64,000 bases of DNA from contig CAYWJO010000005.1 of assembly GCA_964458565.1 (NCBI GenBank), positions 78,200 to 142,199 of the forward strand. The letters run 5' to 3'. Made by a program: the position numbers and the translations under genes. Below the pieces are notes generated by a model that had not been told where the DNA came from, ran no database searches, and worked only from the letters and a program-made list of their open reading frames with translations. Below, in pieces: positions 1 through 6,672 of the stretch. Position 1 is the stretch's first letter, and each line of letters opens with the position of its first letter. The stretch comes from an uncultured archaeon (GTDB taxonomy: Archaea > Asgardarchaeota > Thorarchaeia > Thorarchaeales > Thorarchaeaceae).

Positions 1-1026
1 GACTCCACCAACTGCAGCAGCATGAGCAAGAGACTCATTGATGCTCTTGTAAGAATCACTAAGTGTTGTATACTTACCTGGCATCGCAATAGTTATTGAT
101 TCAGCTGAATCATGGAATTTCTCAACAATATCTTCCCATTCTTTTGTTTGCGGAATTCCTTGTTCAAATCCAAAATGATCTACAATGATATCTCCAAGTC
201 CTTGTTGTTCAAAGGATAATGGTAATTTGTATATCACCTTAATATCCGGATTTGAAATCACTCTTTGCTTTGGAACATTACAGAATAAGGCTATCTTTTC
301 TCTTGCGGACTCATTTAATTGGCTTTCTGCTCTACATACTATAATGTCAGGTTGTAATCCCAATCCCTGTAAGGTTCGAACACTGTGTTGTGTGGGTTTA
401 GTCTTGAATTCTCCAACAGATTTCATATATGGTACCAAGGTTACATGTACAAATGCTACTCTATTATGTCCTAATTCACTAGCTAGTTGTCTTACTGCTT
501 CTTGAAAAGGCATAGCTTCGATATCACCAACAGTTCCTCCAATTTCTACAAGTAATACGTCAGGAACCGGGGGTTTGTTAACCACATCCCATATTCGTTT
601 CTTTATCTGATCTGTAACATGTGGAATGATTTGTACAGTTCTTCCTAGAAATGTCCCTTTTCTTTCTCCTAGGATGACAGAAACATAAATTTGTCCTGAT
701 GTGATATTTTGAGAAGGATGCACATCCATCCCTGTAAATCTCTCGTAAGTGCCAAAGTCCTGATCAATTTCAGATATTCTAAACTTGAAAGCACTTCCTG
801 GTTCAAATGCCCAAGTCTGGTCCGTGACAAAGACTTCACCATGTTCAACAGGATTCAGGGTACCAGGATCAATATTCAGATAAGGGTCAATTTTGACAAT
901 TCTTATACTCATTCCTCTGAATTGGAAAAGTTTTGCAATAGATGCAGTTGTAGCTCCCTTTCCAATACCAGAGAGGACACCACCTGTTACAAAAACAAAT
1001 CGAGTTTTGTTTTGGTCTTGGGTCAA
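1..1026 (-). CDS. pyrG: CTP synthase (3' part runs off the window)
   Basis: Not in ORF track. Reverse strand from TTG at 1026 reads MTQDQNKTRFVFVTGGVLSGIGKG...KIDPYLNIDPGTLNPVEHGEVFV..., later QIIPHVTD, EIGGTVGDIE and KTKPTQHSV. Confidence 0.95.
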   Translation of the reverse strand, partial: MTQDQNKTRFVFVTGGVLSGIGKGATTASIAKLFQFRGMSIRIVKIDPYLNIDPGTLNPVEHGEVFVTDQTWAFEPGSAFKFRISEIDQDFGTYERFTGMDVHPSQNITSGQIYVSVILGERKGTFLGRTVQIIPHVTDQIKKRIWDVVNKPPVPDVLLVEIGGTVGDIEAMPFQEAVRQLASELGHNRVAFVHVTLVPYMKSVGEFKTKPTQHSVRTLQGLGLQPDIIVCRAESQLNESAREKIALFCNVPKQRVISNPDIKVIYKLPLSFEQQGLGDIIVDHFGFEQGIPQTKEWEDIVEKFHDSAESITIAMPGKYTTLSDSYKSINESLAHAAAVGGV

Positions 1027-1123: not shown

Positions 1124-1705
1124 CTATGATACGGGTTTTGCCAAGACTGCACTTTTCAATGCATTTTCAAACAGGTATTGAAAAGCTTCTAATACATTAA
1201 AACCGTCTTTCGCTATACTTCTGAAAACAGGAATAGATGTTGGTAGATTTAGGTAGGACCTGATTTGATTTTCCTGTACTGCACTTTCTAGATCTTGCTT
1301 ATTTAAACAGATAACTATTGGTAGTAACCTGTCTTGTTCCGAAATCATTGACATCAATTCATTCCAACTAGCTAGATTCTCATCAAGAAGTGTTTCCTGC
1401 GAATCAACCATAAAAACAACTCCATCAGCACCTACAAGGACAACTTCTCTTGTTGATCTGTAAAAATCTTGACCTGTGGCAGACCAGACATGAGCATTGA
1501 TAGTCCATCCATTTCCAAGATCGAATGGTATCGTTCCAAAATCACAGAACATAGTACGTCCTACAGTGTTTTCAATTGAAGTCAACTTGTCTGCGTAATC
1601 AAGACTTGAGAAGAGCCAGCGGATTGCAGTTGTTTTACCACTCATTGCTGGTCCAAAGAAGACTATCTTCAATCCCAAAGTTCTACTACCATAATCAATT
1701 ATCAT
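1124..1705 (-). CDS. MglA-type small GTPase
   Basis: G1 GPAMSGKT, MglA-like switch I RTMFCDF, atypical G3 SATGQ, G4 NKQD, G5 SIAK. Confidence 0.85.
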   Translation of the reverse strand: MIIDYGSRTLGLKIVFFGPAMSGKTTAIRWLFSSLDYADKLTSIENTVGRTMFCDFGTIPFDLGNGWTINAHVWSATGQDFYRSTREVVLVGADGVVFMVDSQETLLDENLASWNELMSMISEQDRLLPIVICLNKQDLESAVQENQIRSYLNLPTSIPVFRSIAKDGFNVLEAFQYLFENALKSAVLAKPVS

Positions 1706-1706
1706 T

Positions 1707-2627
1707 TTAACTACCCCACATACTATCTACCCAGGCTCCAAGTCCTGATAGGGTACCTCCCTTTACACAATCTGAGAAATCTTCATGCCATTCTGCCATG
1801 ATAAAACGAATCAAATCGGAAAGCTCACCACCCTCCCAACCAATCGCTTCATAGAGATTTCTCTCCGTTAATGATGTTGGTGCACCTAATTCCCTAGCAA
1901 GTCTTATTCTAGATAAGAGCATTACAGCTCTTCTGGCTGCATGAACATAGCTGCTTATTTCTTCGTCAAATACATCCTGTGTCAACTTGACAGATTCATC
2001 ATCCAATTCTAATACAGCGTTGATAATTTGTTCCGATACATTAACGCCTCTTAATGACTTTCGCAGAAGTCTTTTGATACGTTCCAAAGACTGTCGTTTT
2101 CTAGTAATGATTTTGGTTACAATCTTCTTCTCCAAGTCAAAGTTGGACGGGCTTGGTCTCATTAAGCTGAAGTTCATCACTGAAGGCGAATTCACTCTAA
2201 GAACTCCACAACTTTCTGAGCTAGATAATATCTTATTCAATATCCCTTGAAGATCCTCTTCTGTGACTTTGATACCAAGAATTCTGCTTTCCAGAGGAAT
2301 TGATTGAATCCATGCCGAGAAATTAGTTATCCGATCAAGAGCGAGTCTGAGGTTTGATGAGAGTCCACAAACAATAGTTCGATGCACTTCATAGTCATGT
2401 TTCTCTTCTTCCCAAACCGAAAACAACTCTTCCTGCGATGTAAAATCTCTCCAAAATACAAGTTTGTGTCGATGAGGACAAAGAAGTGTAAGACTCTCAG
2501 TCATATCATCAATCAATTCTACATCTTCACCAACTACAAAAATGGGTATCCTTCCTAAAATCGAATTGAGTAGTAATGGGAAATCATCACCCATCAACTC
2601 AATCATTGCTAGTATTGAATAAGTCAT
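1707..2627 (-). CDS. Putative DENN (folliculin C-terminal-like) domain protein
   Basis: N-terminal FPLLLNSILGRIPIFVVGEDVELIDDMTESLTLLCP fits the cDENN helix-strand-helix pattern; lies between Roadblock and GTPase genes. Confidence 0.55.
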   Translation of the reverse strand: MTYSILAMIELMGDDFPLLLNSILGRIPIFVVGEDVELIDDMTESLTLLCPHRHKLVFWRDFTSQEELFSVWEEEKHDYEVHRTIVCGLSSNLRLALDRITNFSAWIQSIPLESRILGIKVTEEDLQGILNKILSSSESCGVLRVNSPSVMNFSLMRPSPSNFDLEKKIVTKIITRKRQSLERIKRLLRKSLRGVNVSEQIINAVLELDDESVKLTQDVFDEEISSYVHAARRAVMLLSRIRLARELGAPTSLTERNLYEAIGWEGGELSDLIRFIMAEWHEDFSDCVKGGTLSGLGAWVDSMWGS

Positions 2628-3571
2628 GGCTCTCGCCTCGCTAGAAGAAGACTACCATCTGCTGCACCCGCAAGCAATAGCTCCTTTAGATCGTCTGGAA
2701 CTGCAGATTTAACAAGTGAAGCAGATTCCAAAACTCTTCTTATTTCACTGATATAATGTTTGAGTAGGAGTCTCATGAGACCTAGTTTTTGACTATTACG
2801 ATCAACCCAGAGGCTGAATACTCCGTTTGGCACAGCATAAATGAAATGACGATTACTTCCTGTTTCACAAAGAACAGTTTGAAGTGCACTATTTCTCAAT
2901 GTTCTGACAACTCTTTCCGAAGCATCATGAAGTGCAAAAGACATAGCAGCAAGTCTATCATTTGTGAATCTCTCTAATGAAACACGAACTCCTCCACTAA
3001 GCGAAAGGAATACAGAATGAATATTTGGAATACTATCATGTATCTGACGAAGTAAGGCTCTAAGAGTGAGTGCTTGAGACCGGTCAAGTGATATCAGAGA
3101 TCTTGTTACAGAATATTTTTTCCCTTGGCCTTCCGATACCGCAAAGCCTTCTAAGACCTGCTGTGTTTCATGCATACTGTATGAACGAAGGGGAGGAAGT
3201 CGACCATCTATGTGCTGCCTGAGAAGATAAACAAGGCGTGACAGACTATCTTTCATTTCAATAAACAAGGCTGCCAGATTTACCCTCGGTGCTGTGGTCA
3301 CTGTCAGAAAGTAATCTTGGTCATTTGGAAGGGCAGCAAGAAACACCTTCGAAGTTTCAGATTCCATAAGGAGGTATTTGAAATCGTTATGTATCAACTT
3401 TGCAACACCAAAAATAGCACAAGTAGATGACGCAACTGCAAACACTTCCTCTTTACTGAACCATACCCCCGCACTTGCAACGGGAAGTCCATCTTTTTGT
3501 ATCAAGACTACATTTTCAACACCTGCAATCATCTTGATACTCTGCAGTGTTTCATTCAATTCTTCTGTCAC
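2624..3571 (-). CDS. Tandem Roadblock/LC7 (MglB-like) domain protein
   Basis: Two repeats of the helix-GV..VVLI..DGL.VAS pattern (IAGVENVVLIQKDGLPVAS; IPNIHSVFLSLSGGVRVS), each ending in an NL/KLGL helix. Confidence 0.8.
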   Translation of the reverse strand: MTEELNETLQSIKMIAGVENVVLIQKDGLPVASAGVWFSKEEVFAVASSTCAIFGVAKLIHNDFKYLLMESETSKVFLAALPNDQDYFLTVTTAPRVNLAALFIEMKDSLSRLVYLLRQHIDGRLPPLRSYSMHETQQVLEGFAVSEGQGKKYSVTRSLISLDRSQALTLRALLRQIHDSIPNIHSVFLSLSGGVRVSLERFTNDRLAAMSFALHDASERVVRTLRNSALQTVLCETGSNRHFIYAVPNGVFSLWVDRNSQKLGLMRLLLKHYISEIRRVLESASLVKSAVPDDLKELLLAGAADGSLLLARREP

Positions 3572-3686
3572 TTTTCAGCCTCATGGATAATATGGTAAAT
3601 CCAAGATACTGTCTAAGAAGATGCTATTTAATCTCCACACAGTTTATCAAACACCACATACACGAAACTAAGAACACACAAACAGA

Positions 3687-5000
3687 TTACATATGAATTA
3701 ACGCTGCATCAGGAGCCTCTTGAAATATCTCTCGAGCTGCACGACCTACTTTAACTCTGAATCTATCAGATGTATATACCCGAATCACATCAAAATAACC
3801 TCTCATCATATTGGCAATATTCGAGTAGTCTGATAGATTATGAGAAACTTTTTTCCCTTCAATTATTTCGAATACTCTAATCTCCATTGGTTTGACCTGA
3901 TAGGGATTGTAGGGTACGGACGGAAGGGTTGGCACATCCACTATTACCTCCTCCGATGCAATACCCACAGTTTCAGCTATTTCAATTTGAATACTCTCTC
4001 TAACTTTTTTCTTGGTAAGAATCTTAGAAACAAACCTATCTTCGGTATGCAAGACTTTCTCAAATGCTGATTTGTAGAGAACTCTACTATCTAATAGATT
4101 AACAATACGTACTGCTTCTTTTGCCTCTTCGGACTCAGTTCGGTCAATTTGCCTTATTTGCGAAATCAATGAAACATCATCTAAGACTAGAAACTCATCC
4201 GGAGTGGAAAAGCTAGTAAGATTCAAGGTTTTATCTGCAGCATGCATTAGGTTTACGAGCATTACTTCGACACTTCTAACAGCTTTGTGATAATACACAT
4301 TCAAAAACATCTCATATCTTGCAACTAGAAAAGCTTCAAGAGCCCCTCTTGCTGCTAAATCAAATTCAAGAGTTTTTTCCTTAGATACATCCAAACTCCG
4401 TATCAATCGATGTATATCGACAAGTCCGTAGTTTACACCACAATAGAAAGAGTCCCGAATGAGATAATCCATCTTATCAGCATCTACCTGTCCGGCTACT
4501 ATCCCACTTATTACCCCATCAAAATTCTTTACTCGACGCCCCCGTACCAGATCAGCAATCCGCTTTTTTGATATCCCTCCTTTCTCCATTATATCTCCTA
4601 CTGCACTCTTCTTTATCATCCACTCTGTAACATCTTCATGATTCATACCACGATTCTCAATCAAAGCTTCTTCAAAGACATGACTGAATGGACCGTGACC
4701 TAAATCATGTAACAATCCTGCAATTCGTATGTCCTGTAATACATCATCTCCGAGTCCTAAAAGTGGCAAAAGCCTACTTCCAGTGAGACCGGCTAGATAC
4801 ATTGCACCAATACAATGACCGAATCTAGTATGCTCAGCTGTTGGATAAACAAAATGTCCTCCTGAGAGTTGTTTGATTCTACGTAGTCTCTGATATGGCT
4901 CAGAATCTATAATCCCCTTTTCAACTTCAGTCAATCCAATTAACCCATGAATGGGATCATTAATTTCCATTATGAAATCCAAATTACCACCTACTGTCAT
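3687..5000 (-). CDS. HD-domain phosphohydrolase (SAMHD1/dNTPase-like)
   Basis: DPIHG, QRLRRIKQL, HTRFGH, LLHDLGHGPFSHVFE, DADKMDYLIRDS. Confidence 0.9.
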   Translation of the reverse strand: MTVGGNLDFIMEINDPIHGLIGLTEVEKGIIDSEPYQRLRRIKQLSGGHFVYPTAEHTRFGHCIGAMYLAGLTGSRLLPLLGLGDDVLQDIRIAGLLHDLGHGPFSHVFEEALIENRGMNHEDVTEWMIKKSAVGDIMEKGGISKKRIADLVRGRRVKNFDGVISGIVAGQVDADKMDYLIRDSFYCGVNYGLVDIHRLIRSLDVSKEKTLEFDLAARGALEAFLVARYEMFLNVYYHKAVRSVEVMLVNLMHAADKTLNLTSFSTPDEFLVLDDVSLISQIRQIDRTESEEAKEAVRIVNLLDSRVLYKSAFEKVLHTEDRFVSKILTKKKVRESIQIEIAETVGIASEEVIVDVPTLPSVPYNPYQVKPMEIRVFEIIEGKKVSHNLSDYSNIANMMRGYFDVIRVYTSDRFRVKVGRAAREIFQEAPDAALIHM

Positions 5001-5740
5001 ATCTTAGGGTCAAACTGTCTTATCTCACGAATCATCACTTCTGCTGAACTAATTTGTGAAACACACAATGGAAGATGAATACTATCAGCAATTTTAACTG
5101 CCAAGGGGTCCAACTCTTTCACACCCTGAAGAATCACGACTGCCGGTTTTACTGCAACAGAGGTTCCCATCTGACTAGCTTTTATTGCTACCATCGGTGA
5201 TCGACCTGTAGACACATTTGTGAGTATTGCAGCTCTTTGTGTTGTACCACCATAGAGCCGTAACAATTGTTGTGGTGTAAGATTCACTATTGCTTTCACA
5301 CTATCTAAAACAGTATATCCATATATGTCACGTTCAAGCAGACTCTTATGAGTCAACACCTTACAATTCAGTTTTTCTACTAGTACTCTTGCGGGAACAG
5401 GAACTCCAAACTCCCTACTGTCGAGTATAGCTTCGGACCCAATTTCCGGAGATATTAGCTTTTCAAGAGCCATGACAACACGACTGCCACTGGCCGCATC
5501 CATGTCTATTAATCCCTCAACAAATCGTTTGATTGTATCAACACGTGGAGATTTACGTCTTCCACTTTCGTAATCACTTATTACAGAGGGAGATACATCC
5601 AGATGGTTTGCAAGAGTCTTTTGAGATATTTGAAATCTTTTCCGCCATCTCTTCATTACTCTACCCGGATCGTTTTCTGCTAAACAAATTTCGCCGGCCA
5701 TTGTTTCAGCAAGCCGTTGAAGCGACTCACTCCAATCCAT
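4997..5740 (-). CDS. XRE-HTH transcriptional regulator with C-terminal DRTGG-like domain (conserved archaeal family)
   Basis: MAGEI...PG..MKRWR..F.ISQ..LA..L.VSPSVISDYESGRRKSP; GYTVLDS, TGRSPMVAIK; start placed at ATG 5740 (ORF track starts at 5809). Confidence 0.85.
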   Translation of the reverse strand: MDWSESLQRLAETMAGEICLAENDPGRVMKRWRKRFQISQKTLANHLDVSPSVISDYESGRRKSPRVDTIKRFVEGLIDMDAASGSRVVMALEKLISPEIGSEAILDSREFGVPVPARVLVEKLNCKVLTHKSLLERDIYGYTVLDSVKAIVNLTPQQLLRLYGGTTQRAAILTNVSTGRSPMVAIKASQMGTSVAVKPAVVILQGVKELDPLAVKIADSIHLPLCVSQISSAEVMIREIRQFDPKI

Positions 5741-5901
5741 GAATATCATCTCGTGTCTGTAACAGATAAGACTTGCGTAAAAGTCGATATAGATTACGTC
5801 AAATACCAACTAAAACAGAGCCAATGATTCACGGATTCATCTGATATATCTACCGAAGGACTCAAAGAGATAATTGTTTACCAACACCTCAGGTTAATGA
5901 T

Positions 5902-6672
5902 ATGTTCTTCATTTTTATCGTTGGCATGGCCGGATCCGGAAAATCTCTCTTGACTGCATCACTTGAGAAGTGGTTAGTAGGATCTAATATGAGTGTTTCA
6001 GTTGTAAATATCGACCCCGGAGTTGAGAGCCCACCTTATACAAGTGATGTTGATATAAGAGAGTATGTAGACTATGGTGAAATAATGAAACAATATGGCC
6101 TTGGACCAAATGGCGCTCTTGTTGCTTCACTTGATATGGCACTAAACTATGTTACTGATATTCGAGAAGAAATCGCAGAAGAAAGCAGGGACTATGTGCT
6201 TGTTGATTGTCCAGGACAAATGGAATTATTCGCATATCGTAATTCTGGACCTCTTATGGTTTCAAGTCTGCATGGAACAGATTCTGCACTTTCCCTCTAT
6301 CTTATGGATTCTAACATTGCTAGGACTGCTACAGGTTATATTGCCTCACTCTTGTTAGGAATATCAATCAATATCCGCTTTGGACTACCCCAACTTAACG
6401 TCTTGAGTAAATCTGATATATTAACTCCTGAAGAACTAATCAAACTTGAAATGTGGTCCGATGAACCGTATACACTCGAAGAGGCTGTTGATGAGTCAAG
6501 TACGGGTCTAATACGCGAATACTCGAAATCAACCCTGGTGATGCTGGATCAAATGGGTGGTGGTACGAGTATCATCCCCGTATCAGCAAAACAGATGACC
6601 AACATCGACACGCTATATGGTGGAATTCAGAGAATTCTGGCTGGTGGCGAAGATTATCTTTCATTTGAGTAG
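5902..6672 (+). CDS. GPN-loop GTPase
   Basis: GMAGSGKS, NIDPG, YGLGPNGAL, DCPGQMELF, SKSD. Confidence 0.92.
   Translation: MFFIFIVGMAGSGKSLLTASLEKWLVGSNMSVSVVNIDPGVESPPYTSDVDIREYVDYGEIMKQYGLGPNGALVASLDMALNYVTDIREEIAEESRDYVLVDCPGQMELFAYRNSGPLMVSSLHGTDSALSLYLMDSNIARTATGYIASLLLGISINIRFGLPQLNVLSKSDILTPEELIKLEMWSDEPYTLEEAVDESSTGLIREYSKSTLVMLDQMGGGTSIIPVSAKQMTNIDTLYGGIQRILAGGEDYLSFE

Follow-up and report, generated by a model that had tools for sequence, protein, structure and literature searches.

A stretch of 64,000 nt from a Thorarchaeota (Asgard) genome, called the window below (assembly GCA_964458565.1, contig CAYWJO010000005.1, positions 78,200 to 142,199), contains three minus-strand open reading frames (ORFs) of 315, 306 and 193 aa, whose products are read here as a double Roadblock protein, a longin-less protein of DENN fold and an MglA-type small GTPase. 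The three genes are tightly coupled: genes 1 and 2 overlap by 4 bp (2624-2627), and a gap of 1 bp (1706) separates gene 2 from gene 3. Such a trio had been reported in a preliminary description made from the sequence, and the ORF list has all three genes exactly where that description had placed them; the N-terminal peptide that it quoted for the 306-aa protein is found in the ORF translation as well. The features, in positions of the window, are as follows.

2624..3571, minus strand: gene 1, predicted double Roadblock/LC7 protein, 315 aa, GTG start
3209..3571, minus strand: predicted Roadblock domain 1 of gene 1, residues 1-121
2726..3082, minus strand: predicted Roadblock domain 2 of gene 1, residues 164-282, with a C-terminal tail of low confidence after it
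2627-2710, minus strand: C-terminal tail of gene 1, residues 288-315, with a short amphipathic motif
1707..2627, minus strand: gene 2, predicted longin-less DENN-fold protein, 306 aa, ATG start
2148-2627, minus strand: predicted core DENN part of gene 2, about residues 1-160
minus strand, about residues 164-295 of gene 2: predicted downstream helical DENN part
1124..1705, minus strand: gene 3, predicted MglA-type small GTPase, 193 aa, ATG start
3572..3686, minus strand: intergenic region 5' of gene 1, 115 nt, with a TATA-like TTAAATA at 3625-3631 seen by eye

The last of these is a putative promoter of the operon, in which the candidate TATA element was picked out by eye. A scan for sigma-70 promoters and intrinsic terminators gave promoters not above those of shuffled sequences, but it uses a bacterial model that is not applicable to archaea.

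The Roadblock protein and the GTPase

The Pfam family Robl_LC7 matches the 315-aa protein at E 1.1e-9, in two stretches. In its AlphaFold (AF2) model (21 orthologues; mean predicted local distance difference test (pLDDT) 77, predicted template modelling score (pTM) 0.73), two alpha-beta-beta-alpha-beta-beta-beta-alpha units are seen, at residues 1-121 and 164-282. We compared both units with 48,161 representative chains of solved structure by VIA-align. Domain 1 matched MglB of Myxococcus xanthus (6hjm_A; Z 12.3, root-mean-square deviation (rmsd) 1.9 A, 118 aligned residues) and Roadblock3 of MK-D1 (9jue_D, Z 12.0), while domain 2 matched a Streptomyces Roadblock protein (3kye_A, Z 11.3), MglB of Thermus thermophilus (3t1r_A, Z 11.0) and a Thorarchaeota Roadblock protein (7f8m_A, Z 10.3). 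For the best matches of the Roadblock domains, either to MglB or to Asgard Roadblock proteins, the rmsd was 1.7-2.1 A. Gene 1 is thus predicted to encode two Roadblock domains fused in one chain, as had been proposed, since the model has two units and both of them match MglB and Asgard Roadblock folds. The pTM of 0.73 suggests that the two units have a defined packing, and we infer that they may be packed like an MglB dimer.

The tail of the protein carries a motif of roughly D/N-[LF]-K-[EQ]-[LI]-[LF], which is common to all families in our Roadblock alignment A2 (13 families with orthologues). By analogy, this motif might be the counterpart of the C-terminal helix of MglB that holds MglA, a helix discussed in PMC13408092.

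The 193-aa protein matches the Pfam families Arf, Ras and Roc. Searched by sequence against solved structures, its closest relatives turned out to be the MglA proteins of Myxococcus and Thermus (E 2.5e-28 to 7.7e-28), and the next one, Rab7, followed at 1e-10. The difference between 2.5e-28 for MglA and 1e-10 for Rab7 bears out the MglA type that had been assigned at first sight. In the alignment, G49-R50-T51 falls onto D-R-T in Switch I of M. xanthus MglA, and S-A-T-G-Q79 onto T-V-P-G-Q in Switch II. Across 19 GTPase orthologues from 13 families there is no variation in the P-loop, G49-R50-T51, T77-G78-Q79 or N135-K136-x-D138, and the first position of the G3 motif (DxxG) is Ser or Thr, never Asp, in every row of the GTPase alignment (A3). 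We take the arginine of GRT to be the intrinsic arginine finger of MglA and the glutamine of TGQ to be the catalytic one; a G3 position without aspartate is typical of the MglA family. On these sequence features gene 3 is classed as an MglA-type GTPase, and it looks like an active enzyme.

Each operon has one GTPase gene. The 193-aa protein has a G domain only, in which no C-terminal Roadblock domain of the Rag type was found, and its score with the Gtr1_RagA family is 21.8 bits against a Pfam cut-off of 22; for both reasons we do not regard it as a Rag GTPase.

The DENN-fold protein

The 306-aa protein has no significant match in Pfam, in NCBIfam or among the sequences of solved structures. 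Its homologues amount to 227 at 90% clustering, which are more than 70% identical within the Thorarchaeota clade, and the wider family has 68 representatives at 50% clustering and reaches down to about 20% identity, its near-full-length members being about 300 aa long. The names of close homologues point to a Thorarchaeote as the source. Aligning 38 members of the family showed no variation at R26 and P28 and hardly any at R53, E75, R83, W106, E166, E211 and E279.

The AF2 model of this protein has a pLDDT of 88.8 and a pTM of 0.85, and three independent structural comparisons were made with it. In Foldseek against the Protein Data Bank (PDB), folliculin chains came out on top (6ulg_L at E 8.7e-4, then 3v42, 8dhb_J and 6nzd_H, all with probability 0.99-1.00), followed by DENND1A/B (probability 0.87-0.91) and 7mge_C, a chain of the C9orf72:SMCR8:WDR41-ARF1 complex. 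In VIA-align, which does not depend on Foldseek, the top five chains all belong to DENN modules: DENND10 (Z 13.2), the C-terminal domain of folliculin twice (Z 12.7 for 3v42_B and 12.6; rmsd 3.4 A, 187 residues aligned of a 199-residue chain), C9orf72 (Z 11.3) and SMCR8 (Z 11.1), with DENND1A (Z 9.6) and FNIP2 (Z 7.2) lower down. The shape search of the ESM Atlas returned the protein's own Thorarchaeota cluster and then eukaryotic clusters at a TM-score of about 0.5, which carry the families FAM45/DENND10, SPA/Avl9/Afi1/DENND11, SMCR8/Folliculin and DENN/uDENN.

The alignments with DENN modules run from model residue 1 to residues 282-304 and comprise 186-210 aligned residues, so that both the core and the helical tail are covered; the helices at residues 164-303 of the model make up the downstream DENN part. 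Residue 1 of the model aligns to residue 345 of folliculin, 157 of DENND10, 202 of C9orf72 and 170 of DENND1A, in each case past the longin domain, from which we conclude that gene 2 would comprise the core and downstream DENN parts and lack the longin part. Likewise, no longin domain was found in any of the three operon proteins, in Pfam matches or in the models of genes 1 and 2. A longin-less fold like that of DENN proteins and of the folliculin C-terminal domain, with core and downstream parts, is therefore supported for the modelled protein, and the folliculin-like, longin-less DENN protein that had been guessed by eye finds structural evidence in the agreement of Foldseek, VIA-align and the ESM Atlas. 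There may also be a faint sequence echo: Pfam Folliculin_C matches 2 of the 38 members (best E 4.8e-4) and Pfam DENN matches 1 of the 38 (E 0.093), none of which was shown to reach the cut-off.

A different origin of the fold has to be weighed here, namely that the protein is a degenerate P-loop ATPase of the PilT/CpaF/GspE kind with a helical tail, whose likeness to DENN proteins is convergent or comes from a shared Rossmann-like core. Indeed, CpaF, HP0525, GspE, FlaI and RuvB-like ATPases reach VIA-align Z of 9.2-9.9 over residues 1 to about 160-230, and a conserved R-x-P-[IV]-x-[IV]-x-G-x-D lies at strand 1 and the next loop, which is the place of Walker A. However, a GK[ST] Walker A occurs in no member of the 38-member alignment, and most of the ATPase alignments end near residue 160, none going beyond about 231, whereas those of DENN chains reach 282-304. 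The Foldseek probability is 0.2-0.6 for most ATPases and 0.69-0.91 for a few of them (TadA/CpaF 8rkd, PilT), against 0.99-1.00 for folliculin. In the ESM Atlas, leaving the own cluster aside, eight of nine rows are eukaryotic clusters of DENN type or bearing DENN families, and the ninth is a type II secretion system (T2SS) ATPase at a TM-score of 0.40. Taken with this evidence, an ATPase origin of the protein is very improbable, and the DENN fold is the reading we keep.

As a separate observation, the likeness of the DENN core to ATPase cores, with the Walker A place kept and GK[ST] missing, raises the possibility that the DENN core itself descends from an inactivated P-loop domain.

Conservation of the trio and its known relatives

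Of 400 genomes of the phylum, 231 have the DENN-like gene by a family-profile search, and of the 90 high-quality ones 66 have it, usually as a single copy. In the window's own family 83 of 85 genomes carry it; it is absent from whole families, for example f8 (0 of 31), f10, f11 and f13. Wherever a locus had sufficient flank, which was the case in 13 families (the window's own and twelve more), the genes for the Roadblock protein, the DENN-like protein and the GTPase stand in this order on one strand. The synteny across Asgard genomes that had been put forward as a check thus holds for the 13 families sampled. The flanking genes vary among families while the order of the trio is kept. One genome, G127, has two whole trios (L062 and L063), each component being 63-65% identical to its copy, so the trio there appears to have been duplicated as a unit. 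Because the order is conserved phylum-wide and a whole trio is duplicated in G127, we consider that the three genes behave as one evolutionary unit. Fusions of Roadblock with DENN or of DENN with GTPase were not found among proteins of 546-2000 aa, which is weak evidence.

Two further arrangements were seen in this survey. In the most distant subfamily of DENN-like proteins, 19-22% identical to the window protein, the genes occur as tandem pairs (L068:3052-4936, L004:2-1521 and L071:1126-2744), and the partner genes, which were not used in building the family profile, match it at E 4e-51 to 2e-59. The pair in L068, the sole tandem locus with enough flank, has no Roadblock or GTPase neighbours. 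Such pairs recall the eukaryotic heterodimers folliculin-FNIP and C9orf72-SMCR8. Besides, family f22 has another, more distant small-GTPase gene (about 228 aa; E about 1e-17 against the window GTPase), which is located on the other strand just past the operon GTPase gene, between that gene and the TFB paralogue (L060:1209-1895, L061:1107-1787 and L064:1131-1820).

As for the neighbours in the window, an HD-domain gene (3687-5000) lies upstream of gene 1 across the 115-nt spacer, and pyrG (1..1026) lies beyond gene 3, with 97 nt between them. The upstream region (3687-5809 and 5902-6672) encodes the HD-domain protein, which has an HD_assoc_2 region, an HTH_3 regulator and a divergent nucleoside triphosphatase (NTPase), which is probably of the GPN-loop type to judge from its P-loop. 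Conservation of the HD, HTH and pyrG neighbours is confined to the order of the window (families f1 and f2), and these genes lie outside the module.

An operon of this kind has been described before. Liu, Makarova, Koonin, Li et al. (bioRxiv 10.1101/2020.10.19.343400; Nature 2021) reported a Roadblock/small GTPase/DENN operon "conserved in most Asgard archaea", the components of which are a LAMTOR1-like Roadblock protein, a small GTPase of Rab-like type and a protein with a DENN domain. They likened it to folliculin plus Ragulator, noted that the GTPase is not a Rag, proposed a GTPase-regulating role, and also reported that Asgard archaea possess, separately, Rag-family GTPases and longin+DENN proteins. 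Since only one DENN-like gene is present in the window genome, the window trio is almost certainly a member of their operon, which has been known since 2020/2021 and is not a discovery of this work. The three components are the same, our own conservation counts agree with theirs, and nothing essential differs. What we add are refinements: the Roadblock protein is a fused double one in the model and nearest to MglB, the GTPase is classed as MglA-type rather than Rab-like, and the predicted DENN protein is without longin. Their study contains no biochemistry, and no later paper with biochemistry on this operon was found in the open-access literature.

Among the better known systems, MglA-MglB of M. 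xanthus and T. thermophilus (3t1q, 6hjm, 6izw) shares with the window operon a GTPase with an intrinsic Switch-I arginine and Switch-II glutamine, the adjacency of the genes, and a Roadblock partner whose best structural match is MglB. It differs in that MglB is a homodimer while the two window Roadblocks are fused in one chain, and in that the window operon has a DENN-fold gene between its Roadblock and GTPase genes; we know of no bacterial MglAB system with a DENN-fold gene. The exchange factors DENND1A/B of Rab35 (3tw8, 6ekk) have the same architecture of core and downstream DENN parts. In DENND1, however, an upstream longin lobe is present, which helps to hold the Rab, and no such lobe is found here, where the target would be an MglA-type GTPase and not a Rab. 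With folliculin-FNIP/Rag-Ragulator (6nzd, 6ulg, 8dhb) and C9orf72-SMCR8 (7o2w, 6lt0, 7mge) the trio shares the DENN fold and the company of Roadblock-fold proteins and a small GTPase, but it has no longin domain, no second DENN subunit and no Rag-type GTPase, and the sequence likeness is below family thresholds.

This last comparison bears on the strongest claim of the preliminary description, that the trio is a candidate precursor of the Ragulator-Rag-folliculin module. Part of the claim stands, for a Roadblock platform, a DENN-fold protein and a small GTPase, the same three kinds of parts, are all present. The rest does not: the GTPase is 193 aa long, of the MglA type and without the C-terminal Roadblock domain of Rag proteins, its Gtr1_RagA score falls just short of the cut-off, and the trio has no longin domain, which in folliculin is the seat of the catalytic arginine. 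The same analogy was drawn by Liu et al. (bioRxiv 10.1101/2020.10.19.343400), but the Asgard Rag-family GTPases and longin+DENN proteins that they describe are better candidate ancestors. As the GTPase is not a Rag, the longin domain with its catalytic arginine is missing, and separate Rag and longin+DENN proteins exist in Asgard archaea, the precursor reading is weak: direct descent of the eukaryotic module from this trio is improbable, and the operon is not a specific precursor of it.

The proposed GTPase switch and a possible pilus link

The reading we prefer is that the window holds the Thorarchaeotal copy of the Asgard Roadblock/DENN/small-GTPase operon and that this operon encodes a self-contained GTPase switch with the roles predicted below (probability about 0.75). 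The fused Roadblock pair would be the intramolecular equivalent of an MglB dimer and serve as a platform that binds one GTPase. Arg50 and Gln79 of the GTPase itself would be ordered by the platform and hydrolysis thereby stimulated, as may be inferred from the literature on MglA and MglB (PMC9481161, PMC13408092). The DENN-fold protein would then be a second regulator, most likely a factor for nucleotide exchange or release, of which DENND1 is an example, or an adaptor docked on the Roadblock platform. A pilus system nearby may receive the output of the switch.

Several points weigh against this reading. Catalysis in folliculin resides outside its DENN domain, so that exchange activity does not follow from a DENN fold. 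A HMMER search of solved structures with the family profile matches no DENN or folliculin protein, and the homology to DENN proteins therefore rests on the fold, for which the global TM-scores are modest (0.32-0.55). The same profile gave ferritin-type helical matches among solved structures (E about 0.01), which were taken as spurious. Support from expression is very thin: it consists of two 151-nt contigs of a salt-marsh metatranscriptome, at a depth of about 2, which are identical to window 2452-2602 and 2592-2742. The second contig spans the Roadblock/DENN junction, but carry-over of DNA is possible, and uncovered stretches of the operon carry no information. Moreover, in Myxococcus either direction, hydrolysis or exchange, can be promoted by MglB alone (PMC13408092), and for this reason a separate exchange factor may be unneeded. 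When a complex of the three proteins was predicted, with the DENN-like one as the partner chain, the values were 0.02 and 0.00, which count neither for nor against binding.

The two-way action of MglB also speaks for a narrower role of gene 2, as a non-catalytic scaffold or effector adaptor, with all nucleotide control coming from the Roadblock platform. The DENN domains of folliculin and FNIP dimerise and dock on other proteins. In VIA-align, the folliculin C-terminal domain and DENND10 (Z 12.7-13.2), as well as C9orf72 and SMCR8, are closer to the window protein than the exchange-active DENND1A/B (9.6), and the conserved C-terminal tail of the Roadblock protein could serve as the C-terminal helix of MglB does. 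On the other hand, a Z gap of 3 between DENN subfamilies is no functional argument, and the residues R26, R53, E75, R83, E166, E211 and E279, invariant or nearly so in the 38 members, would fit a specific interaction or a catalytic surface, either of the two. We hold the scaffold role possible but on the unlikely side, and the self-contained switch with two regulators remains preferred.

The pilus system was examined through its position. Beyond the GTPase end of the operon, at a distance of about 8.6-21 kb, the window genome has genes for a T2SSE (PilB/TadA-type) ATPase, for a pilin-like protein of 71 aa, for a TFB paralogue and for a membrane ATPase of 1245 aa that resembles HerA/VirB4; this pilus/TFB cluster is in the sequence 1-20 kb before the window start (L072, G000:C5:58200-78199). 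Eight other loci (L074, L078, L082, L085 and L088-L091) were examined for the proximity of the ATPase and TFB genes. In 6 of the 11 families sampled, the T2SSE ATPase, a dedicated TFB paralogue and a pilin-like gene of 61-71 aa were located at a distance of 1-13 kb from the trio, on either side. The T2SSE ATPase is single-copy at E <= 1e-10 in five genomes checked, and by our own estimate from genome sizes a single-copy gene would fall within 20 kb of the trio by chance in about 1-3% of cases per genome. This suggests a link of the trio to the pilus system, as in Myxococcus. That the switch actually controls a type IV pilus-like machine, in the way MglA and MglB control pilus polarity in Myxococcus, is more doubtful. 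The pair of ATPase and TFB genes is on another contig in three families, the T2SSE ATPase was not found with this query in two families that have the trio, related genomes are not independent samples of proximity, and in the window genome the unrelated genes POR, HerA-NurA and pyrG lie between the trio and the pilus cluster.

That the Roadblock protein may take the place of the absent longin is an attractive analogy, given that the Roadblock fold is related to the longin fold and that a longin domain is part of eukaryotic DENN proteins. Carried further, the Roadblock chain would be the longin-like platform of a "split" DENN regulator, which acts on an MglA-type GTPase and steers the type IV pilus-like machine; this full version is unlikely. 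If true, it would give an archaeal counterpart of the polarity control of Myxococcus, made partly from eukaryote-type parts.

Membrane traffic and nutrient signalling in eukaryotes depend for their organisation on DENN-fold regulators, Roadblock platforms and small GTPases. A compact, conserved and mostly single-copy archaeal operon with one of each offers a tractable way to study the working of such regulators before there were eukaryotes. The value of the present locus is that its three proteins are well defined and look soluble, which suits them to biochemistry, and the refinements made here, that is, the MglA-type GTPase, the fused MglB-like pair, the longin-less DENN protein, the joint duplication of the trio and its partial linkage with a pilus cluster, sharpen the experiments that can be done with it.

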